DNA of 64,000 nt from Calditrichia bacterium (lineage in GTDB: Bacteria > Calditrichota > Calditrichia > Calditrichales > J004): contig JACKAO010000006.1 in the NCBI GenBank assembly GCA_020635035.1, positions 238,807 to 302,806 of the forward strand, given 5' to 3'. Every line of letters begins with the position of its first letter. The stretch's first letter is position 1. The position numbers were made by a program, and so were the translations under genes. Below are positions 4,039-48,348 of this stretch, one piece after another. The notes under the pieces are model-generated. The model saw nothing but the letters and a program-made list of their open reading frames with translations, was not told where the DNA came from and made no database searches.

Positions 4039-4199
4039 GACAGGACAGGGAATAATTTAACCGCAGATCCTTAGTATAATTTAATGCGGTTGTGTGTGAT
4101 TATAACGCATAAAAATTTATATTTATCTTCTTTGTTTTTTTGAATTAAAAACGCTTAAAATTGTGTTATGTAATTTGATAATTAGAAAGAAGATAAACC

Positions 4200-4829: not shown

Positions 4830-4963
4830 ATGGTTTCTGCAATCTCCGCTTCTACCTTTCAATTTTATCAAGACTATTGTGTAAGCAGGTAAAATAAAAT
4901 TCATCTTATTAGTTTTTTTAACTATCTTCCAGACTAAATAATATTATAAAGGTGTCTTTTTAT

Positions 4964-5728: not shown

Positions 5729-5747
5729 AAATTGGATTGGATCCGGG

Positions 5748-6827: not shown

Positions 6828-6877
6828 TAAAAGTCATATAGCCATCTTAATTTTTAACCAATTATAAAGAGGCTATC

Positions 6878-15152: not shown

Positions 15153-15521
15153 AAAATCCCCGTTATACAAATCAGTTTGTAATTTATACCTATCTATTAA
15201 TTCCCTTAGCTTTAATCTGTTAAAAGCGATATTCTTTCAGATGAATGAAGGGTTGAAAAGTTGCGTTTTCGAAGAACGCAGAAAATAGGGATTTTTGAAA
15301 GAAAAAAAAAGTTAGAATTTAAAAAAAGAAATACAACTCCTGAACTGTAAATGTTTGCTATATCAGGTGAACCGGATTAATATCAGAGAAAATCAGTTTA
15401 GTAATTATTTACACAATAAAATCATGGATTTTAATAACATTTTGTGAACTGTTTGTTATAAACCGTTTGCATATTTCAAATTGTTAAGGAAAATAAGTAA
15501 CATCATTCAAAGTACACAAAC

Positions 15522-23177: not shown

Positions 23178-24548
23178 TCAAAGTTGTTCAAAATGGCATG
23201 TGAAGTGCCGTAAGTATTTTGGTTGATAGGTTATTTTGTAGCCTTTAACTTTTTCAACATCCTGCATCAGGTAATCAAGCGTTTCTGCGATATAATCAAA
23301 ATGACTTTGTGTATACACGCGTCGCGGAATGGCCAGACGCACCAGTTCAAGCGGACCTGGCTGCTCATTGCCATTATCATCGAAGCGGCCAAACATAACG
23401 CTGCCCAGTTCCACAGAGCGGATGCCGCCGGCCAGATATAATGTGTTAACGAGTGCGATCCCGGGATATTCCAATGGCGGAATGTGTGGCAGAAAAGCTT
23501 TTGCATCAATAAAAACCGCATGCCCGCCAACTGGTTTCACATAAGGAATATTCTTGCTGTCGAGTGCTTTTGCCAGGTATTCAATTGTTGCATGGCGATA
23601 TTTCTGATAATCAGTTTCCAGCGCTTCCATCAATCCGACCGCCGCGGCTTCAAGATCACGTCCGGCCAGGCCGCCATAAGTAATGAATCCTTCGCGCATG
23701 ATCAGGGCATTCTTAAAATCTTCTGCCCAGTCGTCGTCATTACACACAAGAAATCCGCCGATATTAACCAGCCCGTCTTTCTTCAGGCTCATGGTGGCAG
23801 CATCGGCATAGGAGAACATTTCCTGGGCAATTTCAAGAAGCGTTTTGTTTTCATAACCTTTTTCGCGCTGCTGAATAAAGAAGGCGTTCTCGGCAAACCG
23901 ACAGACATCCATGACAAATGGAATACCATATTTATCCAGGAGAGCTTTTGTTTTACGGATATTTTCCATCGAGACAGGCTGTCCGCCGCTGGTATTGTTG
24001 GTAACAGTCATCATGGCGAATGGAATTTTTTCGGCTCCGTTCCCGGTAATCGTGTCTTCCAGTTTGCGCAGATCCATATTGCCTTTAAATGGGGCAACGA
24101 AGTCGTTCTCCAGGCCTTCTTCACAAATCAGGTCCATGGCATAAGCTCCGGCAAATTCAAAATTGGCACGGGTGGTATCAAAATGGCTGTTATTGGGAAC
24201 AATGTCTCCTGGTTTGATTTTTGTTAAAGCCAGGATCCCTTCTGCGGCACGCCCCTGGTGCGTAGGGAATATATGTTTCATTCCTGTTATTAAACGAACG
24301 GTTTCTTCAAAACGGCGAAATGACGGACTGCCGGCATAGCTCTCGTCACCGAGCATCATCGCTGCCCATTGTTTGGTGGACATGGCTCCGGTACCGCTAT
24401 CTGTAAGCAGGTCAATGGCACAGTCTTCCGAGTGCAAAAGGAAAACATTATTGTGGGCATTTTTTAAAGCGGCAATACGCTCTTCTTTGGAGATTACTTT
24501 TAATGGTTCGGTTACTTTAATGCGAAAAGGTTCAATGATCGTCTTCAT
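23178..24548 (-). CDS. tnaA: Tryptophanase-like beta-eliminating lyase (PLP-dependent)
   Basis: Full-length similarity to TnaA as I recall it (EPFRIK, LLTDSGT, THQGR, PLP-lysine region MSLKKDG). Specificity positions are Tnase-like: HFDTTR (Asp), VELG (aliphatic), LRHFT (His). ATG at 24548 follows GAGGAAG. The track ORF starts at a TTG at 24566. Confidence 0.8.
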   Translation of the reverse strand: MKTIIEPFRIKVTEPLKVISKEERIAALKNAHNNVFLLHSEDCAIDLLTDSGTGAMSTKQWAAMMLGDESYAGSPSFRRFEETVRLITGMKHIFPTHQGRAAEGILALTKIKPGDIVPNNSHFDTTRANFEFAGAYAMDLICEEGLENDFVAPFKGNMDLRKLEDTITGNGAEKIPFAMMTVTNNTSGGQPVSMENIRKTKALLDKYGIPFVMDVCRFAENAFFIQQREKGYENKTLLEIAQEMFSYADAATMSLKKDGLVNIGGFLVCNDDDWAEDFKNALIMREGFITYGGLAGRDLEAAAVGLMEALETDYQKYRHATIEYLAKALDSKNIPYVKPVGGHAVFIDAKAFLPHIPPLEYPGIALVNTLYLAGGIRSVELGSVMFGRFDDNGNEQPGPLELVRLAIPRRVYTQSHFDYIAETLDYLMQDVEKVKGYKITYQPKYLRHFTCHFEQL

Positions 24549-24761
24549 ATCTTCCTCTATTTTCAATACCGGAATAAGCTAATCTAAAATTCAAAAAACA
24601 GCGAATCTTTTTTGTTCAATATTCTTAATCTTAAACGTGATCATTATCATAATCGCATTCACTTCCACGCCCCTACCCATAACCATTTCGAAAAATCGTG
24701 GTTTTTCATCATCCTGAAATTTTTTCAGGATCTTTAGAATACTGTCTCTAATGTGACTTAA

Positions 24762-24921: not shown

Positions 24922-26364
<1,443 letters not shown>

Positions 26365-27937: not shown

Positions 27938-29428
27938 TCAGAACAGCCGGTTGGCGAGATTGGCTAAGGTCGATTCAACCGAGTTGTCTGTCCGTATATC
28001 ATCAAACGGGATGTTGTATTCCTGTCCGGCGCGTACAGCAGGCATCACATTTTTAATACCATCGGTTATAAGATCACATATTTTCCGTGCCATACGCTGA
28101 GCCAGGGTAATATCCATATTATTGGGCATGGCTCCACGAATGTCTCTGGAGAAAGCTTCACAAATAACTTTTTGCTGAGTGTCCAGTCCGGCTTTGATCA
28201 GTTCATCACGGAAATATTCGGCGGCATTACCAAGGTAACCTTCTTCACGGCGCAGCTTAATTTTATAACCTTCTGCAACAACGATTACCGTTTCAGAGCG
28301 TGGATTAATTACTTTGGCCAGCTTATCAATATTGTAGTTAGAAGACGGAAGAACGGCTAGATGGGCTCCGGCACCAAGACATGAATGTAAAGCATGGTAA
28401 CCGCCGTGTGCACCCATCATCTCAACGATATAACACCGGCCGTGTGTGCGGGCATCTGCCATATAACCGCGGATTTTTTCAGCACCTACTTCAACGCCTG
28501 TAAATTCACCGATACAGGAAGTCCCCCATATATCACTGTCGATTGTTACCGGGATAAAATAGAACGAAACGTCAGGCAGCTTTTTACTCATTTCATAAAT
28601 TCCGGCAAATGTACCGTTCCCGCCGACACCGATAACGATCTTTACTTTGCGTTCTTTAATGGCGCGGATGGCCAGTTCCTGGTTTTTTTCTTCTTTGAAC
28701 TGCGGATAGCGCTCGGTCCGGAAATCGGCCCCGCGGGCAGCCCGCAGCGGCGGGGCAAACAATACGCCACGGATATGATCCATCTGGCGGTAGCGGTTGT
28801 AATCATAAATAAGGCAGCGGTAATCGGCTGATTTGTTCTGAACCACCGACTTAAATCCCTGGGCGGCAACAAAAATCTGGCGTCCCATTTTTTCCAGGAA
28901 TTCGGCAATGTAACCTGTTACCGGGTTGTAGCCCGGGGCACAGCCGCCATCCTGGATAATCAGCACATCCATTTCGTCGTAGAGCGTATCGCCTTCGCGG
29001 ATGTAGGAGGTTATCAGCTCGGAAAATCCGCGGTAAATCTTCATCAGAGCCGATGCGGACATTGTTTCACCGGTCTGGATCTGCTCTTTATCCAGTACAA
29101 GCAGCATGCCGTTGGATTTAGCTTTTACGGTGCCGGTGCGGGGTCGTTCATCGATCAGGGCAATCTCGCCAAAAAGATCACCTTTATTTAGAACCTTAAG
29201 CACCTGGCCGTATTTTTCAATTACAAAGATACCATCCAGAACAATGTAAACCGCTGTGCCAATTTCGCCTTCTGAGAAAATGGTTTCACCGTTTTCATAC
29301 TTGTAACGTTTTGATGAACCTATAACTTCTTTGATTTCATTGTCGTTTAAATGACGCAGTGTTCGTACGCTTTTAAGCATCTTTATAAGATGCAGATCTT
29401 CCTTATTAAGCGGGAGCTCGCCAGGCAT
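27938..29428 (-). CDS. Fusion protein: N-terminal cyclic-nucleotide-binding domain plus C-terminal phosphofructokinase-family (PfkA-like) domain
   Basis: cNMP motif GDLFGEIALIDERPRTGTVKA. PFK-family blocks GGCAPGYN (compare GGDAPGMN), GVGGNGT (compare GGDGS), PVTIDSDI (compare PGTIDNDI), EMMGAHGG (compare EVMGRxxG), VAEG, RDIRG. Confidence 0.75.
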   Translation of the reverse strand: MPGELPLNKEDLHLIKMLKSVRTLRHLNDNEIKEVIGSSKRYKYENGETIFSEGEIGTAVYIVLDGIFVIEKYGQVLKVLNKGDLFGEIALIDERPRTGTVKAKSNGMLLVLDKEQIQTGETMSASALMKIYRGFSELITSYIREGDTLYDEMDVLIIQDGGCAPGYNPVTGYIAEFLEKMGRQIFVAAQGFKSVVQNKSADYRCLIYDYNRYRQMDHIRGVLFAPPLRAARGADFRTERYPQFKEEKNQELAIRAIKERKVKIVIGVGGNGTFAGIYEMSKKLPDVSFYFIPVTIDSDIWGTSCIGEFTGVEVGAEKIRGYMADARTHGRCYIVEMMGAHGGYHALHSCLGAGAHLAVLPSSNYNIDKLAKVINPRSETVIVVAEGYKIKLRREEGYLGNAAEYFRDELIKAGLDTQQKVICEAFSRDIRGAMPNNMDITLAQRMARKICDLITDGIKNVMPAVRAGQEYNIPFDDIRTDNSVESTLANLANRLF

Positions 29429-32314: not shown

Positions 32315-33007
32315 TTACCCGGCTGTGGATTTTTTTAGTTCATCCAGCATTTCAAGCTGAATTGCCTGAATTTCAGCCATTCGTTCCCATTGCTGAATTA
32401 ATAAATGATCAACTTTCTGGTGAAGCTGCCTTAGCTCTAATTCTGCTTTTAAATTTATTTTATAGTCCTGTTCAGCCCGATTTCTGTCCCTTGCTTCCTG
32501 CCTGTTTTGGCTCATCATAATGATGGGTGCCTGAAGCGCAGCAAGACAGGAAAGCACCAAATTTAATAAGATGAATGGATAAGGATCAAAAGCCTGAGCT
32601 GCTAAAAAATATGAGTTAACAGAAACCCAAAAAAGCATAATCAAACCAAAGGAAATAATAAATTTCCAACTTCCGCCAAATGAAGCAATCAGATCAGATA
32701 GCTTTTCTCCAAAGGTTAAGTTTTCTTTAAACTCTTTTTCTATATTTTCTGATATTGCTTCATATTCAGATAATTTGTTTATAACATCCAGCTCAAGGTT
32801 GGACACTTCGCCTTTTTCATCAGAGATAAGTTTAAGAAGGTATTCCTTACGATATTTTTGTAAGTCTTCTCTGCAGATAAAACCATTTGTATCCCAATCC
32901 GGATGATCAGGTTTTATTATGCTTACTACAGATGGTCTTACAATTATCGATGGAACGACTTCTGTTTGAGATTCATCTTTACCGCATATTTGACAAATTT
33001 TTTTCAT
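32315..33007 (-). CDS. DUF1003-family membrane protein with N-terminal Cys pair, embedded in the his operon
   Basis: DUF1003 core as I recall it: DPYPFILLNLVLSCLAALQAPIIMMSQNRQEARDRNRAEQDYKINLKAELELRQLH. Two TM segments. N-terminal CQIC. Confidence 0.8.
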   Translation of the reverse strand: MKKICQICGKDESQTEVVPSIIVRPSVVSIIKPDHPDWDTNGFICREDLQKYRKEYLLKLISDEKGEVSNLELDVINKLSEYEAISENIEKEFKENLTFGEKLSDLIASFGGSWKFIISFGLIMLFWVSVNSYFLAAQAFDPYPFILLNLVLSCLAALQAPIIMMSQNRQEARDRNRAEQDYKINLKAELELRQLHQKVDHLLIQQWERMAEIQAIQLEMLDELKKSTAG

Positions 33008-37625: not shown

Positions 37626-38765
37626 TTATTCTGAAAATTTCAGGCAAACCGGGCTGGCGTCTGTCTCAACAGAAGACACAAATTCCAGTTGGCCATTGTC
37701 CGGATCAATCCTGAAAACCGAAATATTATTGCTTTTTTGATTCGCTACCAGTAAGAATTTTCCACTGGGATCGATTACAAAATTACGTGGCCAGTTTCCA
37801 TGCACAGGAAAAGTAGCTTTAAAAGATAATTCTCCATTTTCAGGATTTAGATAAAAAAGTGCAATGCTGTTATGTCCGCGATTGGAACCATATAAAAATT
37901 TTCCGGCGGGATGCACATGAATATCTGCACAATAACTCTGCCCGCTAAAGCTATCCGGAAGGGTGCTTATTGTTTGGATTCGCTCTCCGGATGATTTGCC
38001 AAAAACTTCAATTGTATTGGCCAATTCGGTTATAACGTAAATACAATCATTTTTGTAGTTAATTTCAAAATGGCGGGCCCCGCTGCCGGGAGTAAGTGAA
38101 AAATCTTTGTCTTTAAGATGAGTGAGAGTCCCGCTTGATTTGTCAAATTGGTATGTATAAAGTTTATCACTTCCCAGGTCTGCTGCATAGGCAAATTTGT
38201 TTTCTTTTTCCAGGCGAATTGAATGCATATGCGGCGCATCCTGGCGTTTTTTATTTGGCCCTGAGCCTTCGTGGGTAATAACTGAGACAGCTTCCTGCAA
38301 GGATCCATTCTTGGTTATCGGGAAACTTGCCACCGTTGCCCCGACATAATTATTGACGAGTGCGAATTTATTATCTGAAGACAGGCTTATGTAACACGGC
38401 GCCTGTCCTTGAGACGGGACGATGTTTAAAAACTTTAAATTACCATCCTGCGGATTTATCTGAAACGAACTTACAGCACCGCCTGGTTTTCCGTTATACT
38501 CCATGTTTTCATTAACGGCGTATAGATATCTGTTGTCTGATGAGAGAGTTAGGTATGATGGATTTTCAACACCTTTTACAACATGTTTTAACGCCAGTTC
38601 TCCCGTTTGATTGTTGAATGAATAAACATAAATTCCCTGCCCGGAATTTTGCGTGTAAGTTCCGATGTAGATGTTTGAAGTTGAATTTTGGCCTGCTGAT
38701 AACATAGGGATTCCTGCCGATGAGATTAAAAAAATGATTAAAAAGAGTTTTACTGTAAGGCGCAT
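37626..38765 (-). CDS. Secreted lactonase-family 7-bladed beta-propeller protein (6-phosphogluconolactonase/YbhE-like)
   Basis: Signal peptide. Repeated blades with the pattern P..L..S.D.K.LYV.N, typical of the Lactonase family. Confidence 0.75.
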   Translation of the reverse strand: MRLTVKLFLIIFLISSAGIPMLSAGQNSTSNIYIGTYTQNSGQGIYVYSFNNQTGELALKHVVKGVENPSYLTLSSDNRYLYAVNENMEYNGKPGGAVSSFQINPQDGNLKFLNIVPSQGQAPCYISLSSDNKFALVNNYVGATVASFPITKNGSLQEAVSVITHEGSGPNKKRQDAPHMHSIRLEKENKFAYAADLGSDKLYTYQFDKSSGTLTHLKDKDFSLTPGSGARHFEINYKNDCIYVITELANTIEVFGKSSGERIQTISTLPDSFSGQSYCADIHVHPAGKFLYGSNRGHNSIALFYLNPENGELSFKATFPVHGNWPRNFVIDPSGKFLLVANQKSNNISVFRIDPDNGQLEFVSSVETDASPVCLKFSE

Positions 38766-38834: not shown

Positions 38835-40025
38835 TTAAAATGAATATTTGGTTCTCAGATAGAATGCTTTTCCGTAATTACCAAACTCACTCAGATTTGG
38901 GCCTTCTGTCAAAAAACCAATCAGATAAAGGTCCAGGTTAGTAATAACAGACCATGAAATTGATGGAACAAAAATAGATGAATTATCCTGCGGGTTGTGT
39001 AAAACAAAAAAGTCTCCGCGGACCAAGGGATGCAGGTCGTAAGCAGTTTCAAAAAACAAAGACCAGCGGGAAGGAGAAAGCAGCCCGGCTTGCACTGCCT
39101 GAAATGTGTACAATCCACTATACTCGGTTTTGCCAATGGAATTGTATAAAACTTCAGAGTGCAGATAAAATGAACTGGGAAATGTATAATCAGCGGATAA
39201 AACCGCACTGATGTTTTTTGAATTTGCCTGACTGTAATTTTCGCCAAAAGGTAATAAAGTTCCCTGTAGTTGGTCTCTCGAAGGTGGCTTTGTGTATTTA
39301 AATTCTCCCCGAAAACCGGCTCCCCGGATATCTCCGGAGAAAGCGGCGGCAAAAAGCGGGCTGTTATTTTGAATAGCCGAAATAAGGTAAAAATCGTAAT
39401 CCCAGTTATTGAACAGCCACAATAAGGCCGCCGTTTGTTTGTTGCTATTCTTAGCCGGTTTGTAAACAGCCTCCAGCCGGCCAATGGCCCCGGTGTAATA
39501 CTGAACACGAATGGCGTCACTTCCCGGTTTTTCTTCATAATCGAAATCAAGAATGGATTGCGGGTTGAATAAATCGATAACATTCCAGACAAGACTGGTT
39601 CCCCAGGCAATGCGCTGGCGCCCGATTGTAAATTGCCAGCTTCCGCTGGTATAATCAAAAAAGAGACGATCCACCTGTCCATAACCAAGCGACGAATTTT
39701 GATGCCACAACACTGTCTTTAAATCTGCAAAAGGGTAGTTGGTTATGACAGTTGATTTGAATCCCGGCGTTTTTTCAACCATGCCGCCATTAAATCCGCG
39801 AATCCGGAATTCCAGCCCGGCGGTCAGGTTGCTGGTCGGGTACCAGCGGTTATTTAATCGAAAATGAACCTGGTGATCGATCAAATTTTCGTTGCTGATA
39901 AGTTTGTTTTCTGCAACGGAAAAAAGATATTTGGCATAACCGTAGGTCTGCCAATTTTCGCTTTGAGCAAAAACATTGGCAGCCGCCAAAAACAAAGTGA
40001 GAATTAGCAGTTTTAGTTTCATCAT
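38835..40025 (-). CDS. Outer-membrane beta-barrel protein (uncharacterised), last gene of the ABC/LolA-like operon
   Basis: Signal peptide ending AQS. Alternating-hydrophobicity strands throughout. C-terminal YLRTKYSF ends in an aromatic residue. ATGA overlap with the ATPase gene. Confidence 0.6.
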   Translation of the reverse strand: MMKLKLLILTLFLAAANVFAQSENWQTYGYAKYLFSVAENKLISNENLIDHQVHFRLNNRWYPTSNLTAGLEFRIRGFNGGMVEKTPGFKSTVITNYPFADLKTVLWHQNSSLGYGQVDRLFFDYTSGSWQFTIGRQRIAWGTSLVWNVIDLFNPQSILDFDYEEKPGSDAIRVQYYTGAIGRLEAVYKPAKNSNKQTAALLWLFNNWDYDFYLISAIQNNSPLFAAAFSGDIRGAGFRGEFKYTKPPSRDQLQGTLLPFGENYSQANSKNISAVLSADYTFPSSFYLHSEVLYNSIGKTEYSGLYTFQAVQAGLLSPSRWSLFFETAYDLHPLVRGDFFVLHNPQDNSSIFVPSISWSVITNLDLYLIGFLTEGPNLSEFGNYGKAFYLRTKYSF

Positions 40026-40708
40026 TTATTAATCTTGTCTTCTTTTACCATACCGTCTTCAAGGGTGACCACTCGGCGGGCACGTTTTATGACACGCGCA
40101 TCATGCGTTGAGAAAATAAAGGTCATATTATGCTTTTTGTTCATTTCTTCCATCATGTCAAGCAGGGATTCTGCTGATTTTGAATCCAGGTTCGCTGTCG
40201 GTTCATCCGCCAGTACAAAAGCCGGTTTGGAAGCAAGGGCACGGGCTACAGCAACGCGCTGCTGCTGACCACCGGAGAGTTGTGAAGGTCGATTATCCAT
40301 GCGGTCACCTAAACCGACATCCTGCAGCAGGTTCTCAGCCTGTTCACGTCTCTCTTTTTTGGAAACCTTTTGCAGCAGCATGATAAATTCCACGTTTTCA
40401 AGCGCGGTTAAAACAGGAATCAGGTTATACGCCTGGAAAACAAAACCGATTTTATTCAGGCGAAAATCAACCAGGTTGCCTGGTTTCATTTTTGTGATAT
40501 CATTATTATCAATGATAACGGTTCCATTGGTCGGCTTATCTAGGCCACCTAAAATATTAAGCATGGTGGTTTTGCCTGATCCCGACGGACCAACAATGGC
40601 AGTAAATTCCTGTTTTTCAAAAGTTATATTGATGTCTTTTAACGCGTTGACAGGAACGGCCGTGGTGTTGTAGGTTTTTGAAATGTCTTTTAACTCAATA
40701 AGTGCCAT
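40022..40708 (-). CDS. ABC transporter ATP-binding protein, LolD/MacB-type
   Basis: Walker A GPSGSGKTT, signature LSGGQQQRVAVARAL, Walker B VLADEPTANLD. Confidence 0.95.
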   Translation of the reverse strand: MALIELKDISKTYNTTAVPVNALKDINITFEKQEFTAIVGPSGSGKTTMLNILGGLDKPTNGTVIIDNNDITKMKPGNLVDFRLNKIGFVFQAYNLIPVLTALENVEFIMLLQKVSKKERREQAENLLQDVGLGDRMDNRPSQLSGGQQQRVAVARALASKPAFVLADEPTANLDSKSAESLLDMMEEMNKKHNMTFIFSTHDARVIKRARRVVTLEDGMVKEDKINK

Positions 40709-40765
40709 TTTTTGATTTCTCCTTAAAAATCTTTTATCGAATTCTTAATCTACTTCTGTTAAAAA

Positions 40766-41983
40766 TTAATACGTTCGGATTGCTTCTGCCGGCGTCAGAT
40801 GTGTAGCTTTCCAGGCCGGCAGCAAAGCTGCAATATTTGCCGCAAATAAAATCATAATGGTTAAACCGATATACATACTTGCCGGCAGGAACGGGTAAAG
40901 CATTGAAGCCGATCCAAAACTTTCCAGCCCGGTCGCAAAGGCTGAGAGATCAATGCCGGCACTGTTAAAAAATCCTATAAAGAAACCACCCACCGTCATT
41001 CCCAGAATACCGCCGGTCATGGAAAGGAAAATGGTTTCAAGCAGGATCATAAAAAATACCCGGCTTTTTTTCATTCCTACCGCTGTTAATATGCCCAGCT
41101 CGCGGATGCGTTCCACAACACTCATCAGCATATTGTTGGTAATTCCGAACAACAGGGCAAAAAGGATGATGGCGACAAACAGGTACGTGAAGGCTTCCAT
41201 AGATGACGACACAAAGGCCAGCTCCGGAGCCATCTTTTCCCAGGTTTCGACGGCCAAACCCGGTAATGCTGATGCAAGATTTTGTTCTACGACAGGGACG
41301 TATTTTGCGGACTTCACGCGGATGGCAATTTCGTGTATCAAAGTCTCTGTCTGATGCAGCGAGCGCATCAGGTCAACTTGCCGCAGAAAAACATTGGTTT
41401 CGTCAAAGACACTGGACTCCGTCTTGAAAATTCCGGTGATACGGCAGGCCAGGTAGATGATTTCCCCGTGGACATCCTGGAAGGTTAAGATAATTTTTGA
41501 TCTTAATTTAAGGTTCAAACGATCCGCCAGCTTTTTACCGATAATGACCTGGTTTCGTTTCTGTGTATCAAAATAATCACCGTCGACAATTTTTTGATAC
41601 AGGCGGCTTACACTTTTTTCTGCCACACGATCGATGCCGACTATTTTTACACCGAATGATGACGCTGCACTGGCAGCCATTCCTTCTAAAATGGTTCGTT
41701 TGGAATACCCGGCAATTGAATCCTGGGCATTGATGGCATTTTCAACCGCTTTTACATCTTTGATGTAGTTGGTAATCTGGACATCATCTTTAAACTTTTT
41801 GGAGTGGATTTCAACATGACCCAGGTAACGATCAATAGCAGAATCAACCATGGATTCCGCCATACCCATCATAATGGCACCGGAAAACAAACCACCCCAG
41901 AGTCCGAGCATTATAGCCAGGATAATCACCAGGCTGCGTTTTTTGTTGCGCCAGATATTTTTCCATGCAAGTTGAGTTAACAT
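40766..41983 (-). CDS. FtsX/LolC/E-type ABC permease (paralog 3)
   Basis: N-terminal LAWKNIWRNKKRS. One TM, a large periplasmic domain, then three C-terminal TM segments (FtsX domain). Confidence 0.9.
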   Translation of the reverse strand: MLTQLAWKNIWRNKKRSLVIILAIMLGLWGGLFSGAIMMGMAESMVDSAIDRYLGHVEIHSKKFKDDVQITNYIKDVKAVENAINAQDSIAGYSKRTILEGMAASAASSFGVKIVGIDRVAEKSVSRLYQKIVDGDYFDTQKRNQVIIGKKLADRLNLKLRSKIILTFQDVHGEIIYLACRITGIFKTESSVFDETNVFLRQVDLMRSLHQTETLIHEIAIRVKSAKYVPVVEQNLASALPGLAVETWEKMAPELAFVSSSMEAFTYLFVAIILFALLFGITNNMLMSVVERIRELGILTAVGMKKSRVFFMILLETIFLSMTGGILGMTVGGFFIGFFNSAGIDLSAFATGLESFGSASMLYPFLPASMYIGLTIMILFAANIAALLPAWKATHLTPAEAIRTY

Positions 41984-42043
41984 TTATTTTCCTTTCACAC
42001 TTTGTCATGCTGGGTAATTAAAGTATTTACCTTACTTTCATAA

Positions 42044-42068
42044 GATTCTTCACTGCGTTCAGAATGAC
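42044..42068. repeat. REP-like palindromic element (GATTC...GAATGAC type), copy 2
   Basis: GATTCTTCACTGCGTTCAGAATGAC, with the same 25-nt frame and flanks as 24762-24786. An inverted GTCATGCTG at 42004-42012 faces the GTCATTCTG on the other strand. Confidence 0.4.
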
Positions 42069-42088
42069 ACTTGTTTTAAACTATATTT

Positions 42089-43303
42089 TTATCTTCTCAT
42101 GGCCTGGATTGGTTTTAAGTGACCAATAAACAGCAACGGGTAAAGCGCGCAAAACAGGGCAATCACAAAAACAATTATCGATTGCCAGAAATAAATATCC
42201 GGATTTACACTAAAGGTCATGATAGGTTCAATGCCCAGGCTTTCCCAGGCAGCTGCCGAATCTCCGCTTAAAACAATCGGATTGGCTTTCAGGTACGCTG
42301 TTATCGGGATGCTGCCCAGAACTCCGAAAACAACACCAATAAGTGAAATCATCACACTCTCAATCAATGAGACAAAAATCATTCTTTGTTTTTTCATGCC
42401 GATCGAATTCAAAATGCCGAACTCCTTTTCTCGTTCGGCGGTCATCATCATGATGGTGCCAAAAACGCCGAATGCAATCACCATGTAAAGTATTCCGATC
42501 ATAATCAGCCCGCTGGCGTTGTCCATTTCAATGCTCTGGACCAGGTCGGGCATCATTTCGTCCCAGGTCATTACAGTCAGTTTATTTGTAAGCATCCCAT
42601 GGACCGCATCGTTAACGGTTTCCAAATTGCGGATATTATCAATCATGATCGAAAGCGACGTGATACGTCCCGGGGCAGCGTAAATATATTGGGCGTTCGG
42701 GAGATCGATAAAAGCCATGGCATCGTTCATTTGCGGAAGCGGCAGCTCTACAATTCCGGTGATTTTCAGCTCCGCTGCTGCAATTTGTCCGTGAAAACCA
42801 CTGCCGTACAAAACAATCGAATCGCCAAGTACAGCTTTTAAACGTTTCGCCAATCCGCTGGCTATAATAATACCCTGATCACCACTTTGCAGGTATTGAC
42901 CGGAAACCAATTTTTTATCCAGTTCCGTCATATTGTGTTCTTTTTGCGGATCGATGCCGATAACCGGAGAAACCTTTGTGATTGAATCTTTTGATAACAG
43001 GGCAAAGGCTTCCAGCCTTGGTGTTAACGATGTAATATGATTTATTTTCTGTAAAGAATCCTGAAAGCCGGAAGTCAGCTGGATGCTTTCGTCCAATGAT
43101 CGGTTTTCCCAAAACTTTTCACCCTGGATTTGCAGGTAACCGGTTTGCATTTTTGCGGCCGAATCAATCATGTAACTGTAAGAACCCAATTGGGCGGAGC
43201 GCATTACACAGGCAAGGATGACGGCAAAAAAAACGGAAGCTGACACGATCACAGTTCTCTTTTTATTACGCCAGATATTTTTCCAGGCAAGTTTAAAATA
43301 CAT
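42089..43303 (-). CDS. FtsX/LolC/E-type ABC permease (paralog 2)
   Basis: Starts MYFKLAWKNIWRNKKRTVIVSASVFFAVILAC. Clearly paralogous to the upstream permease along its whole length. Confidence 0.9.
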   Translation of the reverse strand: MYFKLAWKNIWRNKKRTVIVSASVFFAVILACVMRSAQLGSYSYMIDSAAKMQTGYLQIQGEKFWENRSLDESIQLTSGFQDSLQKINHITSLTPRLEAFALLSKDSITKVSPVIGIDPQKEHNMTELDKKLVSGQYLQSGDQGIIIASGLAKRLKAVLGDSIVLYGSGFHGQIAAAELKITGIVELPLPQMNDAMAFIDLPNAQYIYAAPGRITSLSIMIDNIRNLETVNDAVHGMLTNKLTVMTWDEMMPDLVQSIEMDNASGLIMIGILYMVIAFGVFGTIMMMTAEREKEFGILNSIGMKKQRMIFVSLIESVMISLIGVVFGVLGSIPITAYLKANPIVLSGDSAAAWESLGIEPIMTFSVNPDIYFWQSIIVFVIALFCALYPLLFIGHLKPIQAMRR

Positions 43304-43316
43304 TTAAATTTTCCTT

Positions 43317-44528
43317 TTATTTTTTCAGGGCTTTAACAATTTTTAAACGGCTGAGAAACAACATTGGATAAATCAGGCAGATAAAAGAAATTATAAAAAT
43401 AATCATGGCCTGGTTTACAAAAATAGACGGATCGGCGCTGAAGGAAAAAACCGCTTCAATGCCAAGCTGCTCCCAGGATTTAGCAATTTCGCCGGTAAGT
43501 TGGATCGGGTGATGCGCCAGGTATGTGGTCACAGGGATGGCGGCAATAATTCCGCTCAAAGTGCCAATGGACGCCAGGAAAACGTTTTCAAAAAATGTAA
43601 CCAGGAACATGCGCCTTTTTTTCATGCCAAGCGCATTTAGAATGCCATATTCGGTTTCTCTTTCCAGCGTCATCATCATCACAACCCCGAAAATACCAAA
43701 GGCAATAACAATATACAGGATGCCGATAAGAATAAAATTGCTGCTGGTTTTAAACTGAATGGTCTGTTTGATTTCCGGGAGCAGTTCTTCCCAGGTTAAA
43801 ACGGTTTCATCGCTGGAAATAAATTTATGAATATCACCTGATACACGGTTTAACTCATTAAGGTCATCAATCATAACGGCTAAAGAAGTAATCCGGTTCT
43901 CCAAACCAAAAATGTCGGCGGCTTTTTTGATATTAATATAAACTGTCGATGTATTCATTTTTTCAATTGGAAATTTTAAAATTCCTGTGACAGGAAGCAG
44001 GGCAGCCGCTGTTTGGCCGTGAAATCCTAACCCGTATATAAGCAGTGAATCGCCGATTGAAAGTTTTAACCTTTCCGCCAAACCGGATGCAATCAAAGCT
44101 CCATCTTTGAGAGAAAAATATTCACCTTTTTGCAGATATTTTGATGTCCCGCTTACTTTATCTTCAGCGTGTGGATCAATTCCGGTAATATGTGCAACGC
44201 GTACAAGACTGTCTCCGGAGATCAGAACAACACTTTCAATCCTTGGAGTAATACTGGTTATATTTTTTATTTTATTGATTTCGTCCTTTTGTGAATCACT
44301 CAGAACAATGCTGTCATCCAGCGAGCGGTTTTCCCAGTAGTTTTTATGCTGGACCTGTAATACCCCAAGGTAAATTTTTGTGATGGAGTGGACCATGTAA
44401 TCAAAACTACCTATCTGCGCAGACCGCTGCAGGCAGGATAAAATAACAGCAAAAAAAACGGATGCAGAGACAATCAGAGTACGTTTCTTATTGCGCCAGA
44501 CATTTTTCCAGGCAAGTTTCAGATACAT
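43317..44528 (-). CDS. FtsX/LolC/E-type ABC permease (paralog 1)
   Basis: Starts MYLKLAWKNVWRNKKRTLIVSASVFFAVILSC. Same architecture as paralog 2. Confidence 0.9.
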   Translation of the reverse strand: MYLKLAWKNVWRNKKRTLIVSASVFFAVILSCLQRSAQIGSFDYMVHSITKIYLGVLQVQHKNYWENRSLDDSIVLSDSQKDEINKIKNITSITPRIESVVLISGDSLVRVAHITGIDPHAEDKVSGTSKYLQKGEYFSLKDGALIASGLAERLKLSIGDSLLIYGLGFHGQTAAALLPVTGILKFPIEKMNTSTVYINIKKAADIFGLENRITSLAVMIDDLNELNRVSGDIHKFISSDETVLTWEELLPEIKQTIQFKTSSNFILIGILYIVIAFGIFGVVMMMTLERETEYGILNALGMKKRRMFLVTFFENVFLASIGTLSGIIAAIPVTTYLAHHPIQLTGEIAKSWEQLGIEAVFSFSADPSIFVNQAMIIFIISFICLIYPMLFLSRLKIVKALKK

Positions 44529-44536
44529 ATCATGCT

Positions 44537-45385
44537 CTATTTTTTAAGAGTTTTAAAATATTCTTTTAGAGTTGTCTTTCCATAACTGTCAGCGATCATA
44601 TCCATCGTTAGTACAGTCATAAAAAATTCAATCGGGCCATAAATTTTAACGGTTGTAAAGAATCGGATAATTTTCAACAGGAATCGCGACATCCAAATAG
44701 GGATGTAACGGATTTTTTTCTTTTTGCCCAAAACATCGAAGGCAATTTCTGCAATCTGGTTCTGCGTCAAAATTTCAGGGCCGCCTATTTCAATTTCTTT
44801 TTTGTCCGAATCGATATTTTGCACGATGTTGTCTGCTAAATCTTTTCCGTCGATGGGATTTGCTTTAAGATTGCCATCGCCAAAAAGGTAAACGGTATTC
44901 TTCTCTGCCATTCGAAAAATTTCGGATACATCGGAGAAAAAACCGTTGGGGTTAATAATCAGGTAGGGCATCCCGGAAGATCTTAGCGCTTCTGCAAATT
45001 TTAATTTGGCTTGTATTATTTTAAGATCTTTTAATTTATGACCATTAAAAACAGAGACATAAATGAACTTCTTTACCCCACATTTCTGCGCTTCATTCAG
45101 CAAATTTAAATTCGCCCGGTAGTCAACATCCATATAGGTTAAGCCATCACGCTGTTTTGTTATGCCAACCGTGGAAATCACAACATCAATTTCATTGATA
45201 GTGTCTTTTAAAGTTTCCGGCTTTGTTACTTCTGCTTCAATATATTTTGCAACATATTTGTCCAGGTGTTTGATTTTATTCTTGATTCGAACAAGCGCTG
45301 TAACCCGGAAATTATTTTCTGATAAGCTTTGAACAAGGCGCTGACCCAAATATCCTGAAGCGCCGGCTACTAATACAGATCTCAC
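44537..45385 (-). CDS. NmrA-like / atypical SDR NAD(P)-binding protein
   Basis: Rossmann motif VLVAGASGYLGQ. GTG start preceded by AGGAG. Lies inside the ABC operon. Confidence 0.7.
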   Translation of the reverse strand: MRSVLVAGASGYLGQRLVQSLSENNFRVTALVRIKNKIKHLDKYVAKYIEAEVTKPETLKDTINEIDVVISTVGITKQRDGLTYMDVDYRANLNLLNEAQKCGVKKFIYVSVFNGHKLKDLKIIQAKLKFAEALRSSGMPYLIINPNGFFSDVSEIFRMAEKNTVYLFGDGNLKANPIDGKDLADNIVQNIDSDKKEIEIGGPEILTQNQIAEIAFDVLGKKKKIRYIPIWMSRFLLKIIRFFTTVKIYGPIEFFMTVLTMDMIADSYGKTTLKEYFKTLKK

Positions 45386-45399
45386 TTCTATTACTCCTG

Positions 45400-46149
45400 C
45401 TATCTTACGCGTTTCATGTTCTGCTGAGAAAAGAAATCGGTACTGAGTTTTTTATTGAACTCAATATCTTTGTACTCCATAATTGTTTTCTGACCCGGTT
45501 TATCTTCAGGAGTAACTTCCCAGTAGGAAGGAATTGTCCGGCCACCTATTTCCTTTATTTTATCCCCGGTCATGCTTTTAACCAGGTAGTCGTCTTCATC
45601 GTAGTATTCAATTTTTAACTGGAGATAGCTTTCTTTTGAAATCCAGATGTATATTTTCCCCCAGACGACGCCGGCTTCCGGCTTTGGATCCAGATGAATT
45701 TTATAACAATCGTATCCTTTATATTTTTCTTCTCCGATGATCGAATGATTATAGTCTTGTACAATGGAAGACTGGCGGACAAGGTCATCATTTGTAAAAT
45801 CCGAACCCATCCAGGATTGCAGCATCATTGAAGGCGGGATTTTAATCGTACGCTGCACCGTGGGGATGTAATTCCAGACTTCATTTTTACGCTTTAAAGT
45901 AACCGTTCCTTTATCACGCGCGGGTTCAGTCACGAGAACAAGTGCATAATCCGGTTCAATTGACCATACTTTCATGTGCATTTCCCTCGACCAGTCCGGT
46001 TTTACTATTTTCATTATTACTTCCGAATAACTGCTGTTAGCACGCAAAAGCTGGTTGGATTTATCTACGATATCACGGGCGCTATCCTGGGCATAAAGCA
46101 AAGATGAAAAAATAAATACAACCAGGAAAAAAAAAGATATTGATTTCAT
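45400..46149 (-). CDS. LolA-like outer-membrane lipoprotein-sorting protein family member
   Basis: Signal peptide, about 250 aa. The pattern (ARDIVDKS...MKIV...W.REM.MKVW...ALV....P.RDKGT..L....E.W.Y.P......KI) matches the LolA_like family as I recall it. Confidence 0.7.
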   Translation of the reverse strand: MKSISFFFLVVFIFSSLLYAQDSARDIVDKSNQLLRANSSYSEVIMKIVKPDWSREMHMKVWSIEPDYALVLVTEPARDKGTVTLKRKNEVWNYIPTVQRTIKIPPSMMLQSWMGSDFTNDDLVRQSSIVQDYNHSIIGEEKYKGYDCYKIHLDPKPEAGVVWGKIYIWISKESYLQLKIEYYDEDDYLVKSMTGDKIKEIGGRTIPSYWEVTPEDKPGQKTIMEYKDIEFNKKLSTDFFSQQNMKRVR

Positions 46150-46159
46150 GACAGTTCCT

Positions 46160-46771
46160 TTATTTTTTTAGTCCTGAAATAAGTGTTTCTGAAAGTGTTT
46201 TCTCAACATTTACCAGATTAATGATATTGGGATCAATTATTGTCTGCAGAAGGATGCCGTCAAGCGCTGCAATAAGAATAGCCGAATAAGAATCGACATC
46301 AACCTTTTTGAAGATTCCTTTTTGAATGCCTTCACGGACAATTTGACTTATTAAAGTACGGTATTCCGTGTAAGTTCGTTTAAGGTTTACAATTTCCAGC
46401 ATTTCATCATTTTTGGTACGGACACCTTCTGCCCAAAAATCCATCATTACTGCAGCAAAGTCTCGTGATTCCGAGTCAAGAAAAGAAAAACTTAAATTGG
46501 ACAAAAGATTTAATTTTTCAACCGGATCATCAACTTCAGCAATATGTGTTATCAAACTTTCTTTCATATCGGCAAAGAATGTATTATAAGCTTCTGCAAA
46601 TATTTCTTCCTTGCTGCGGAAGTATTCATAAATCGTTCCTTTGCCCACTCCGGCGGCGTTAGCGATATCAATCATTTTAGATTTGGCAATTCCGTTTTTT
46701 GCGAACACCTGCAACGCAGCCTGAATTATCTGGTTTTTCTTTGCTTCCTTATCAACGATTCGAGGTGCCAT
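46160..46771 (-). CDS. TetR/AcrR-family transcriptional regulator
   Basis: N-terminal HTH (IIQAALQVFAKNGIAKSKMIDIANAAGVGKGTIYEYFRSKEEIF). First gene of the operon. Confidence 0.95.
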   Translation of the reverse strand: MAPRIVDKEAKKNQIIQAALQVFAKNGIAKSKMIDIANAAGVGKGTIYEYFRSKEEIFAEAYNTFFADMKESLITHIAEVDDPVEKLNLLSNLSFSFLDSESRDFAAVMMDFWAEGVRTKNDEMLEIVNLKRTYTEYRTLISQIVREGIQKGIFKKVDVDSYSAILIAALDGILLQTIIDPNIINLVNVEKTLSETLISGLKK

Positions 46772-46791
46772 ATTCTCCTTGTATTTTTTAT

Positions 46792-46805
46792 TGACCGACC
46801 GGTCA
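46792..46805. promoter_or_regulatory. Candidate TetR operator palindrome
   Basis: TGACCG-AC-CGGTCA, perfect 6-bp arms. It lies 21-34 nt upstream of the tetR ATG. Confidence 0.5.
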
Positions 46806-47082: not shown

Positions 47083-48348
47083 ATGAAACGTCTGTTATTC
47101 ATTATTGTACTTTTATTATTAACCGGTAATGTTTTCGCACAATCAAAGCCACTGCATCAGTATTTTAACAGCTGGAATCAAAATACGGAAGATGCTCCTT
47201 CTGTTGATGTCGATGTGGCAATGCAGCGTTTAGGGTTTGGTTATCCCTATGTTGAAGGGATGCTGAAATCTGTTGAAATTAATGGCTACTGGTATAAAGG
47301 AAATTATTACAGCACTTATGAGTTAGAAAAGTATGGTTTTGTTTTTCCGGTAAAAGCAAAAAGTCCTATCGCGAAAGTCACTTTTGATGCCGGTATCACC
47401 AATGTATTCATAGAACATACTTACGACAATCAATTTGATCTCTATACAAAAGTTAAAAGCTCAAGAGAAATACCCTTTAGTCAGGATGCGAAAGACAGAA
47501 TCAATCAATATGCGAAAGAAAATGACTTTGAAGGCGGCGGTGCAGCGGTCTGGGAAGAGTATGGTTATATAAGCGGTATAGAGATTATTGAAATTTCATC
47601 GCCAACATTCAGCGACATTAGATCTGCCATACGAGAATTACTAAAAGATAATGCAATCCAAAAGAAAAAAGAAGAAATTGCAGAAAAACGCGAGACAAAA
47701 GCACGTGATAAAAGAATTGCTAAACAGGTAGAACAACACAAAACCACTTTTGGTTATGCAATGGATTATTATAGTAAAGCAGTTGCAGCATACAATGCCG
47801 GTGAATATAGTTTAGCTAAAAGATATGTGGATCAGGGGTTAAGTATTGATCCTTCGAATCGTTATTTGAAAAGTTTATCTTACAAAGTAAATCAGGAAGC
47901 AGCAGTTCAAGGTTTTTCGAATGGAATGATGGCTTTATCCAATGAAGGTATCAGCGCCGGGTTTGTTTATAATAACTTAAGCGGCATTGGTCTGGTGTTT
48001 GGGTATCATACTGGTAATGATGACTTCACGGGATACAACCAGCCTGATGACTGGTCACTTCTTTTTTCAGCAGGACTTATTCCTGTTGGTGACGTGTCCG
48101 GATATCAAACATATTCTGCAATTTGGGGAATACCTTTTGAGATCGAGAACCCATTCAGTTTTATTCCCTTACCTTTAATCGTAGCTGATTATCTTGCTCC
48201 TTCTGTTGGCTTGTCTTATGTAACTCATGGCAAAAAAGAAGAAGTTGGTTACAGTATCGGTTTGCAGGATATTACAGGAAGTATTGGCTTTTATGGTCAA
48301 TACGACACTATTTCTGAATTTGAGTTTGGGTTTTTCGCAGCGTTCTAA
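47083..48348 (+). CDS. Secreted hypothetical protein with Lys/Glu-rich linker, TPR-like segment and Gly/aromatic-rich C-terminal region
   Basis: Signal peptide MKRLLFIIVLLLLTGNVFAQ. Charged helix KKKEEIAEKRETKARDKRIAKQ. TPR-like AAYNAGEYSLAKRYVDQGLSIDPSN. C-terminus FGFFAAF ends in Phe. No family recognised. Confidence 0.5.
   Translation: MKRLLFIIVLLLLTGNVFAQSKPLHQYFNSWNQNTEDAPSVDVDVAMQRLGFGYPYVEGMLKSVEINGYWYKGNYYSTYELEKYGFVFPVKAKSPIAKVTFDAGITNVFIEHTYDNQFDLYTKVKSSREIPFSQDAKDRINQYAKENDFEGGGAAVWEEYGYISGIEIIEISSPTFSDIRSAIRELLKDNAIQKKKEEIAEKRETKARDKRIAKQVEQHKTTFGYAMDYYSKAVAAYNAGEYSLAKRYVDQGLSIDPSNRYLKSLSYKVNQEAAVQGFSNGMMALSNEGISAGFVYNNLSGIGLVFGYHTGNDDFTGYNQPDDWSLLFSAGLIPVGDVSGYQTYSAIWGIPFEIENPFSFIPLPLIVADYLAPSVGLSYVTHGKKEEVGYSIGLQDITGSIGFYGQYDTISEFEFGFFAAF

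Follow-up and report, generated by a model that had tools for sequence, protein, structure and literature searches.

In a stretch of 64,000 nucleotides from the metagenome-assembled genome of a Calditrichia bacterium (GenBank assembly GCA_020635035.1, contig JACKAO010000006.1, positions 238,807 to 302,806), hereafter referred to as the window, the minus strand carries between 46771 and 38835 eight open reading frames (ORFs) of the same direction, which are considered here as a candidate operon for the traffic of a lipid-like compound through the cell envelope. In the order of reading they encode a TetR-family repressor of 203 amino acids (aa; 46160-46771), a LolA-like carrier (249 aa; 45400-46149), an NmrA-like atypical short-chain dehydrogenase/reductase (SDR) starting from GTG (282 aa; 44537-45385), three permeases designated P1 (403 aa; 43317-44528), P2 (404 aa; 42089-43303) and P3 (405 aa; 40766-41983), an ATPase of the ATP-binding cassette (ABC) type (228 aa; 40022-40708) and a predicted outer-membrane beta-barrel (396 aa; 38835-40025). 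The genes are separated, in operon order, by 10, 14, 8, 13, 105 and 57 nt, while the stop codon of the ATPase gene and the start of the barrel gene are joined by an ATGA overlap (AAATGATGAAA). An earlier note, made from the letters of the window alone, had described precisely this layout of eight co-oriented genes, and the ORF coordinates reproduce it; the families that it had assigned are likewise confirmed by Pfam and NCBIfam scans of all eight proteins. The translations coincide, letter for letter, with NCBI records MCB9058970-77, where they bear the generic names of TetR/AcrR regulator, outer membrane lipoprotein-sorting protein, SDR oxidoreductase, three ABC transporter permeases, ABC ATP-binding protein and hypothetical protein. 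What is new here is that the core of this operon is a widespread uncharacterised ABC-driven relative of the envelope systems combining a LolA-fold protein with a barrel of the DUF1302 lineage.

The soluble part of the presumed route is the most clearly assigned one. The 249-aa protein matches the Pfam family PF17131 (LolA_like, now named TP_0789-like) with an E value of 4.8e-61 and 206 bits against a cutoff of 30, covering profile positions 3-184 of 184, so that the LolA-like identity proposed for it beforehand holds in terms of this particular family. Canonical Pfam LolA gives no match to the carrier at E<=0.01, and in NCBIfam only LolA3_fam responds, at 22 bits against a cutoff of 83. Its relatives in the PDB, 4z48, 9tp6, 3buu and 3bk5 (E 2e-19 to 5e-14), are all of unassigned function. 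The carrier begins with a type-I signal peptide lacking a lipobox cysteine, and the same holds, judged by eye, for the N-termini of about 65 orthologs; it is therefore taken to be a soluble periplasmic protein.

All three permeases contain FtsX and MacB_PCD domains according to Pfam, and the hydropathy of each (one N-terminal transmembrane segment, a periplasmic domain of about 220 residues and approximately three C-terminal transmembrane segments) fits the layout of type VII ABC transporters. Against the lolCE model TIGR02212 they reach only 99-106 bits, the cutoff being 362. The nearest solved proteins of P2 are LolF, LolE and LolC (E 6e-16 to 1e-9), with MacB following at 1e-4 only, while P3 is closest to LolF (3e-15) and MacB (2.5e-14). 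In nearly all loci compared it is P2 that best matches the first permease (42-71% identity), and the second permease of every complete locus is an ortholog of P3 (43-72%). The division into two close paralogs and a distant one, anticipated in the earlier note, is borne out by identities of 49% between P1 and P2 and 26% between P2 and P3, although the likeness of the first pair is very uneven, amounting to 81% in the N-terminus with the first transmembrane segment and to 43% in the periplasmic domain. A neighbour-joining tree places P1, on a long branch, together with P2 and the Calditrichota orthologs of P2, and P1 deviates at 19 of 109 family-conserved positions versus 5 of 109 for P2. Judged by these comparisons P1 is a lineage-specific, fast-evolving duplicate of the first permease. 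The closest relative (locus L003) has two permeases and no NmrA-like gene, and a Neomarinimicrobiota locus with three permeases (L046) acquired its extra copy independently. The three permeases of the window probably form two alternative heterodimers, P1-P3 and P2-P3, which would share one ATPase and possibly differ in cargo or in docking of the carrier. A trimeric machine built from three permeases was considered and rejected, since 58 of the 63 complete cassettes described below encode two permeases and the duplication in Neomarinimicrobiota is independent; thus the ratio of three permeases to one ATPase, to which attention had been drawn before, is correct as a gene count in the window and probably does not hold as the stoichiometry of a machine. 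The ATPase itself, of the type found in LolD and in the nucleotide-binding domain of MacB, has intact Walker A (GPSGSGKT), Q-loop, LSGGQ signature, Walker B (FVLADEP) and H-loop motifs, scores 126 bits with ABC_tran (E 2e-36) and matches MJ0796, BceA and LolD among PDB entries (E 1e-53 to 1e-61); its best NCBIfam match is LolD TIGR02211, with 240 bits remaining below the cutoff of 307.75. The 105-nt gap between P2 and P3 contains at 42044-42068 of the minus strand a 25-nt motif GTCATTCTGAACGCAGTGAAGAATC with short inverted arms (ATTCT...AGAAT), which occurs once in the window.

Assignment of the last product was less straightforward. The 396-aa protein has a signal peptide at its N-terminus (MMKLKLLILTLFLAAANVFAQ) and ends in YSF, it gives no Pfam match, DUF1302 (PF06980, gathering score 23.2 bits) being unmatched even at E<=1, and it has no match by sequence in the PDB. 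The family is nevertheless large: a homolog search returned 1222 hits, many of them about 50% identical and originating from other phyla, and a profile search covering 1.84 billion cluster representatives collected 627 clusters (50% identity) at E<=1e-30 and 2169 at E<=1e-10, so that a family of 627 clusters at the stricter threshold exists without a Pfam model of its own. The AlphaFold2 model computed from 43 homologs (mean predicted local distance difference test score, pLDDT, 90.5; predicted template modelling score 0.83) is all-beta with approximately 18 strands, which are connected by short turns at one side of the barrel and by long loops at the opposite one, and 338 barrel chains of the PDB match it at E<=1e-3. 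The best Foldseek matches are the 18-strand barrels C. jejuni MOMP, OccAB and AlgE, with a template modelling score of about 0.57 and 8-13% identity, which is a match at the level of fold. Signal peptide, YSF end and barrel model thus agree with the expectation, voiced in the earlier note, of an outer-membrane barrel ending in phenylalanine. Fifty positions are invariant across the 43 homologs, and many of them fall into GRQRIAWGT...WNVxDLFNP...DFDYEE (residues 135-165), a conserved stretch which starts at a strand end and runs through a near-invariant long loop (residues 138-168), the invariant residues including R136, Q137, R138, W147, N148, D151, D162, Y163 and E164; the strand count would place this loop on the extracellular side, like the constriction loop of porins. 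DUF1302 is weakly matched by six of the 43 homologs (best E 9e-4), the Burkholderia ortholog reaches a sub-threshold 21.2 bits, and the 43-sequence profile aligns with a Prevotella nigrescens protein annotated as 'DUF1302 family protein' at an hhalign probability of 93.5% (E 2e-7) over only about 86 columns around the conserved loop. From the model and these alignments we conclude that the 396-aa protein is probably an outer-membrane barrel distantly related to DUF1302. The name 'Alginate export domain', which UniRef gives to one homolog, was examined as an alternative identity and rejected: there is no Pfam match, and the resemblance to AlgE (8% identity, template modelling score of about 0.57) is no better than that to MOMP or OccAB.

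Transcription of the operon appears to be placed under control of its first gene. The repressor matches TetR_N at 59 bits against a cutoff of 24 (E 3.6e-16) and also TetR_C_6; its best NCBIfam match is Bacillus-type FadR (NF053878), with 85 bits against a cutoff of 200, and over the full length it resembles PDB entries 5gp9/5gpa and B. subtilis FadR 3whb (FadR/YsiA; E 1e-15 to 3e-17), matching in addition the efflux repressors MtrR, AcrR and TtgR. By its domains, then, the protein is a TetR repressor, FadR-like by resemblance only; since its likeness to acyl-CoA-binding FadR extends over the full length, the inducer is probably hydrophobic. Twenty nucleotides 5' of its ATG, at 46792-46805, lies the perfect 6-2-6 palindrome TGACCG-AC-CGGTCA (TGACCGACCGGTCA) that the earlier note had pointed out, unique in the window with one mismatch allowed at a chance expectation of 0.02. 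Upstream of TetR orthologs in Calditrichota, Desulfobacterota and KSB1 loci an 18-bp palindrome TGACCGAC-NN-GTCGGTCA follows a TTGAC-like box and precedes the start codon by about 20-45 nt, the window and locus L004 carrying its 14-bp short form, and in Ignavibacteria a clade-specific variant TGAACnnnnGTTCA occupies the same position. Conserved position combined with clade-specific sequence has the look of an autoregulated TetR operator, and the site is designated here as a putative one.

The NmrA-like protein stands apart from the other products. It matches NAD_binding_10 (81.7 bits versus a cutoff of 27.2, E 8e-23) and NmrA (69 bits versus 27, E 7e-19), and its nearest solved relatives are NDUFA9, the 39-kDa subunit of complex I, and isoflavone-reductase-like proteins (E about 1e-10), while comparisons with NCBIfam and PDB reached no specific enzyme family. 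The sequence has no signal peptide and no predicted transmembrane segment and begins directly with the Rossmann motif GASGYLG (GxxGxxG, residues 8-14), from which a cytoplasmic location follows. The gene is present in only five operons, the one of the window and four from Ignavibacteria (orthologs 51-56% identical), lying between TetR and the carrier in Ignavibacteria and between the carrier and P1 in the window. Two different positions within the operon in two phyla speak for a real but optional functional link, and suggest that the SDR is genuinely associated with the operon as an accessory outside the core cassette. Hence, of the role that had been envisaged for the NmrA-like enzyme, an accessory link is favoured and a central place in the system is not.

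To what extent these genes form an evolutionary unit was assessed by a scan of species-representative genomes anchored on the barrel, from which the best 80 loci were taken with 10-kb flanks; the synteny sample comprised 83 sources (82 fetched loci and the window), compared by tblastn with the window proteins and by all-against-all clustering of ORFs. At least 549 species in the scanned genomes carry a relative of the barrel. In 63 of the 83 sources a single strand carries the genes for LolA-like protein, permease(s), ATPase and barrel in this succession; most of the remaining 20 sources are too short upstream to display the full set. Exactly two permeases, P2-type and then P3-type, are encoded in 58 of these 63 complete cassettes, and a TetR ortholog stands immediately upstream in 43 of them, full-length orthologs being 37-59% identical to that of the window. 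Identity to the window proteins amounts to 57-73% for the carrier, 64-82% for the ATPase, 42-72% for the permeases and 43-67% for the barrel, across genomes assigned by record title to Calditrichota, Ignavibacteriota, 'Bacteroidetes', Desulfobacterota, KSB1, Marinimicrobia, Acidobacteriota, Vecturithrix and others. The conserved unit is therefore composed of carrier, permease A, permease B, ATPase and barrel, usually with TetR: the strong synteny that the earlier note suggested testing for is observed, and it embraces five or six genes rather than eight.

Several forms of this scheme were noted. A 2-Mb replicon of Vibrio campbellii (PLSDB records; strain LJC015, about 1359.3-1364.5 kb of NZ_CP050465.1) preserves the same gene order. 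The betaproteobacterial variant found on plasmids of Burkholderia thailandensis (NZ_CP068711.1, record 277860-284695; L086) and Ralstonia pickettii (pRp12D0, record 234969-241864; L088) consists of carrier, ATPase, a fused 832-aa permease and barrel, and in both it is followed on the same strand by an AarF/ABC1/UbiB-family kinase. In Persicobacter the carrier and barrel homologs are about 4 kb apart, and the contigs carrying the distant barrel homologs P0286 and P0227 measure about 2 kb, too little to include neighbouring genes. In loci of the Ignavibacteria type two genes directly 3' of the barrel and on the same strand encode a lipoprotein-like ORF of about 226 aa (15 loci) and a Yip1-like multi-pass protein of about 197 aa (24 loci), as exemplified by 11367-12684 in L039 and 9189-10534 in L054; these could be extra components specific to the lineage. 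As general parts of the system, OsmC, glyoxalase, methyltransferase, Yip-like, lipoprotein-like and TPR neighbours were rejected, since they occur only in loci labelled as Ignavibacteria or Bacteroidetes and were taken to reflect lineage synteny.

Comparison with known transport systems places the cassette close to several of them and inside none. Like LolCDE-LolA(-LolB), it encodes two different FtsX/MacB_PCD permeases and one LolD-type ATPase alongside a LolA-superfamily carrier; unlike it, the scores with the equivalog models are far below the cutoffs, the carrier belongs to PF17131 rather than to canonical LolA, an 18-strand barrel stands in place of the LolB lipoprotein, TetR control is present and the distribution is patchy and partly plasmid-borne. 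From MacAB-TolC it differs in that no HlyD or OEP match is found among the eight products, the barrel is modelled as a single chain, and the ATPase (228 aa) is separate from permeases of 403-405 aa, whereas MacB fuses both. With MacAB-TolC and YbbAP-TesA it shares the transporter superfamily, in which the periplasmic partner defines the function, the partners being the esterase TesA or an adaptor with TolC there and a carrier with a barrel here; for YbbAP-TesA, removal of hydrophobic compounds from the inner membrane has been suggested (PMC12646458). The fused 832-aa permease of the betaproteobacterial cassette, a duplicated permease, recalls YbbP. Sequence comparison thus indicates a cassette that would work like Lol but falls outside both LolCDE and MacAB-TolC.

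A different set of relatives emerges if the comparison starts from the carrier and the barrel. In proteobacteria DUF1302, DUF1329 (LolA-fold), a BNR propeller and a pump of the resistance-nodulation-division (RND) family cofit, and export of an envelope component was proposed for them (bioRxiv 10.1101/072470); AmeABCD of Castellaniella defragrans has been characterised as an efflux transporter tied to monoterpene metabolism (PMC6394551). In these systems, Sama_1588-1591 among them, as in the cassette, an inner-membrane pump is accompanied by a LolA-fold protein in the periplasm and by an outer-membrane barrel, which belongs to the DUF1302 lineage there and probably does so here; the GRQ.(I/V).WG loop motif of the window barrel recurs in a DUF1302 family protein. 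The differences concern the energiser (proton-driven RND of the HAE3 type there, an ABC transporter here), the carrier (DUF1329 of about 450 aa versus PF17131 of about 250 aa), the barrel (about 540-600 versus about 390 aa) and the BNR/Ycf48-like propeller, which belongs to the core there and has as its counterpart here a secreted lactonase-family propeller adjacent to the cassette in Calditrichota only. A further combination is seen in Bacteroidales: in Prevotella nigrescens (NZ_CP082843.1, record 364042-373016; L089), next to transposases, an operon encodes TetR, two ABC proteins of about 580 aa, MMPL, PF17131 and the DUF1302 family protein. It is likewise headed by TetR, and its PF17131 carrier (24% identical, full length) is directly followed by the DUF1302-type barrel, but an MMPL pump and the two ABC proteins of about 580 aa replace FtsX-type permeases and a separate ATPase. 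Equivalent genes of P. gingivalis (PG1175-81) and P. intermedia bear corresponding annotations (PMC10434189); they respond to limitation of iron or haem, being induced about 13- to 220-fold when iron is limiting, and were described as uncharacterised (PMC10434189, PMC13096392).

Three further arrangements are parallel in their logic. Borrelia BBJ23-29 was predicted computationally in 2026 to be an accessory exporter in which a MacB-like transporter is combined with a LolA-like protein and an Omp85 barrel, and its suggested task is to withdraw a non-polar ligand and bring it to the outer membrane (PMC13078400); it differs from the cassette by an Omp85/BamA-family barrel, a homodimeric permease and extra chaperone-like genes, with no TetR described there. 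In the aryl-polyene system ApeL, ApeM and ApeN, a LolA-like chaperone and an inner-membrane pump have been suggested to bring a specialised lipid into the outer membrane (PMC8253772), the differences being an RND pump, a LolB-like DUF3261 partner and location of the genes inside a biosynthetic cluster, which the cassette does not have. Finally, E. coli O157:H7 EDL933 (NZ_CP124742.1, record 146311-159405, near ycdU; L090) carries an island encoding two beta-ketoacyl synthases, an ABC ATPase, one FtsX/MacB_PCD permease, PF17131, a 462-aa hypothetical protein and FabD, which by its gene content is a lipid or polyketide synthesis cluster with Lol-like export genes of its own. The 462-aa protein following the PF17131 gene was tried as a homolog of the barrel and discarded (hhalign probability 0.9%), leaving the island as an architectural parallel only. 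None of the systems compared has the composition of the cassette and none such is described in the full-text literature searched, in accord with the earlier note, whose author could name no characterised counterpart.

Taking these data together, we favour, with somewhat better than even confidence, an inducible accessory Lol-like route which spans the envelope and exports a lipid-like molecule from the inner membrane to the surface. Type VII ABC transporters work through a periplasmic partner and several of them extract lipid-like substrates from the inner membrane (PMC12646458). The proposal of extraction, shuttling and release through a barrel is made because in this superfamily the partner defines the function (PMC12646458) and every cassette encodes a LolA-fold carrier and a barrel. 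Two copies of the ATPase would power a heterodimer of P3 with P2 or with its diverged duplicate P1, and the transporter, being LolCDE-like, would not move the cargo across the inner membrane; it would rather extract it from this membrane at the expense of ATP. The cargo would then be handed to the soluble PF17131 carrier, remain shielded while crossing the periplasm and be delivered to the dedicated 18-strand DUF1302-related barrel for insertion into the outer membrane or release to the outside. The FadR-like TetR would sit on the promoter-overlapping palindrome until an acyl- or lipid-like ligand frees the operon, and the NmrA-like SDR may serve as a lineage-specific cytoplasmic accessory in modification of the cargo or in redox sensing. 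The contacts between the parts, the direction of transport, the cargo and the nature of the inducer are what we infer here. As the earlier note had it, every compartment of the envelope is furnished with a component, and families, signal peptides and topology support this. The cassette looks inducible and accessory rather than housekeeping, another view of that note which gains support, because of TetR with its conserved operator, the Lol scores in NCBIfam far below the cutoffs, and the occurrence on a Vibrio replicon and on Burkholderia and Ralstonia plasmids. As for the cargo, isoprenoid quinones or another specialised membrane lipid are possible; the guess is drawn from just two neighbours, the recurrent accessory NDUFA9-like SDR and the UbiB-family kinase of the betaproteobacterial cassette, the latter hinting at an isoprenoid-quinone or lipid cargo.

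Several points weigh against this interpretation. Similarity of the repressor to FadR stays below the equivalog cutoff (85 vs 200 bits), the homology of the barrel to DUF1302 is carried by about 86 aligned columns around one loop, and the accessory status in the Calditrichia genome, of which the 64-kb window was covered, is presumptive. No biosynthetic genes are conserved beside the cassette, and the literature searched contains neither a published experiment on any of its members nor a paper describing it. Moreover, induction of an MMPL/LolA-like fusion and a porin of T. oleivorans on C28 alkane fits uptake as well as export (PMC6304351).

The last observation leads to the alternative that survives best, even though we regard it as unlikely, namely, that the cassette takes up a hydrophobic nutrient such as a long-chain fatty acid or alkane, with the barrel admitting it, the carrier ferrying it inward, the ABC transporter helping to deliver it and acyl-CoA inducing the operon via TetR. 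Bacillus FadR, which the repressor resembles, controls fatty-acid degradation genes and is released by acyl-CoA. We know of no characterised type VII ABC transporter that imports; those of the MacB/FtsX/Lol group push or extract substrates outward or act in mechanotransmission (PMC12646458). In T. oleivorans the fusion and the adjacent porin respond specifically to n-C28 alkane (PMC6304351), and P. putida DUF1302/DUF1329 genes, located near fatty-acid catabolic genes, show fitness defects on fatty esters (bioRxiv 10.1101/2020.07.04.188060), but across the 83 sources no catabolic genes, for instance those of beta-oxidation or for an alkane hydroxylase, are conserved as neighbours of the cassette, and the flanks in the window are occupied by genes for histidine and glutamate biosynthesis.

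Slightly less credit is given to a specialised lipoprotein route, in which one or few acylated proteins would be extracted and passed to the barrel for insertion or surface exposure. It would be in line with LolF, LolE and LolC as nearest relatives of the permeases, with LolD as the nearest of the NCBIfam models to the ATPase, with affiliation of the carrier to a family of the LolA-superfamily fold and with a similar prediction for the Borrelia cluster of MacB-like, LolA-like and Omp85 proteins (BBJ23-29; PMC13078400). Yet no lipoprotein gene is conserved in or beside the cassette across phyla, the lipoprotein-like ORF being confined to 15 loci of the Ignavibacteria type, TetR repressors typically respond to small molecules, and the pair of PF17131 and DUF1302 is elsewhere coupled to MMPL/RND pumps, which move small lipids and not proteins (PMC6394551).

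Control of efflux by TetR is a classic arrangement, and resemblance of the repressor to MtrR, AcrR and TtgR, the match of P3 to MacB (E 2.5e-14) and the report of the related AmeABCD as a monoterpene efflux transporter (PMC6394551) all recall a MacAB-like detoxification pump for foreign amphipathic compounds (antibiotics, bile-like detergents, solvents), with the carrier and the barrel replacing adaptor and TolC. We hold this to be improbable: the operon products include no membrane-fusion protein and no TolC-type channel, an apparently complete pump of adaptor, OEP and presumed RND component is already encoded in the window (9542-15170), and the 57-73% identity of the carrier across phyla fits one defined cargo better than broad xenobiotics; besides, such a pump overlaps with the export route favoured above, differing only in the origin of the cargo. 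Least of all, and with very little probability, may the cassette be the housekeeping Lol pathway of the lineage (LolCDE and LolA, with the barrel replacing LolB), as two different permeases with one ATPase and the lack of visible canonical lolCDE or lolA in the other 56 kb of the window might suggest, given that the permeases score 99-106 bits versus 362 with lolCE and the ATPase 240 versus 307.75 with LolD, the carrier belongs to PF17131 and leaves canonical Pfam LolA unmatched at E<=0.01, a TetR repressor with a conserved operator heads the operon, and the patchy distribution includes a Vibrio campbellii replicon and Burkholderia and Ralstonia plasmids, while all three genera have an essential canonical Lol system.

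The surroundings of the operon are formed by unrelated housekeeping genes, gltBD on the upstream side and the his operon on the downstream one. A divergent 421-aa TPR-like gene in the upstream flank (47083-48348) has no homolog near the cassette in the other fetched loci examined by tblastn. Downstream, 69 nt past the barrel gene and before the his operon, begins on the same strand a gene (37626-38765) for a secreted 7-bladed beta-propeller 'lactonase' of 379 aa with a signal peptide (PF10282, E 1e-114). A scan detected no terminator-like site between the barrel and lactonase genes; promoter and terminator scans gave site counts no higher than in shuffled sequence. Lactonase homologs lie just downstream of the barrel gene in the Calditrichota loci L003 and L007 and are absent from other phyla. 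A periplasmic propeller also belongs to the proteobacterial DUF1302/DUF1329/RND systems, and a lactonase to P. putida PP_2018-21, so that by analogy the protein may be a ninth component in the Calditrichota lineage; equally, its adjacency may be lineage synteny only, and the membership of this possible ninth gene is uncertain.

Beyond the cassette, some other features of the window are worth recording. Just upstream of hisG (37386-36520), at 37491-37390 of the minus strand, a 12-codon leader ORF MHHYHHHKHTPR with six histidine codons is followed by a GC-rich hairpin and a T-run, an arrangement resembling the classical histidine attenuator, here in a genome of the Calditrichia, and the same biosynthetic operon accommodates between hisB and hisH a gene for a DUF1003 membrane protein (32315-33007, minus strand). 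Also on the minus strand are found a 496-aa fusion of a cyclic-nucleotide-binding domain with a phosphofructokinase domain (27938-29428), tandem paralogous genes for beta-eliminating lyases of the tryptophanase/tyrosine phenol-lyase family (23178-24566 and 24922-26364), and at 9542-15170 the separate efflux operon encoding OEP, a 1059-aa ORF (presumed RND pump) and an HlyD-type adaptor. On the plus strand, 1729-8371 encodes three proteins with C-terminal sorting domains of type IX secretion (FG-GAP/PKD, CBM9 and beta-helix).

Returning to the accessory export route, its significance stems from the fact that little is settled about how hydrophobic molecules other than lipopolysaccharide (LPS) and lipoproteins traverse the periplasm and arrive at the outer membrane or get through it. 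The cassette is compact and self-contained, uniting repressor, extractor, shuttle and barrel, and it is directly testable in cultured organisms, since Vibrio campbellii, Ralstonia pickettii, Burkholderia thailandensis and, judged by its carrier and barrel homologs, probably Persicobacter harbour it. A bolder proposal, entertained tentatively and with clearly less than even confidence, is that it represents an undescribed fifth functional class of type VII ABC machine, where a Lol-like heterodimer would pass a defined endogenous lipid to the PF17131 shuttle and the DUF1302-type barrel, this pair being a universal interchangeable module for ABC, MMPL or RND energisers. If true, lipids other than LPS and lipoproteins would thereby have a generally available path to the outer membrane or out of the cell. 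Linking the cassette with the Bacteroidales MMPL operon and with the DUF1302/DUF1329/RND systems points to one shared outer-envelope module, which may stand behind several unexplained phenotypes.

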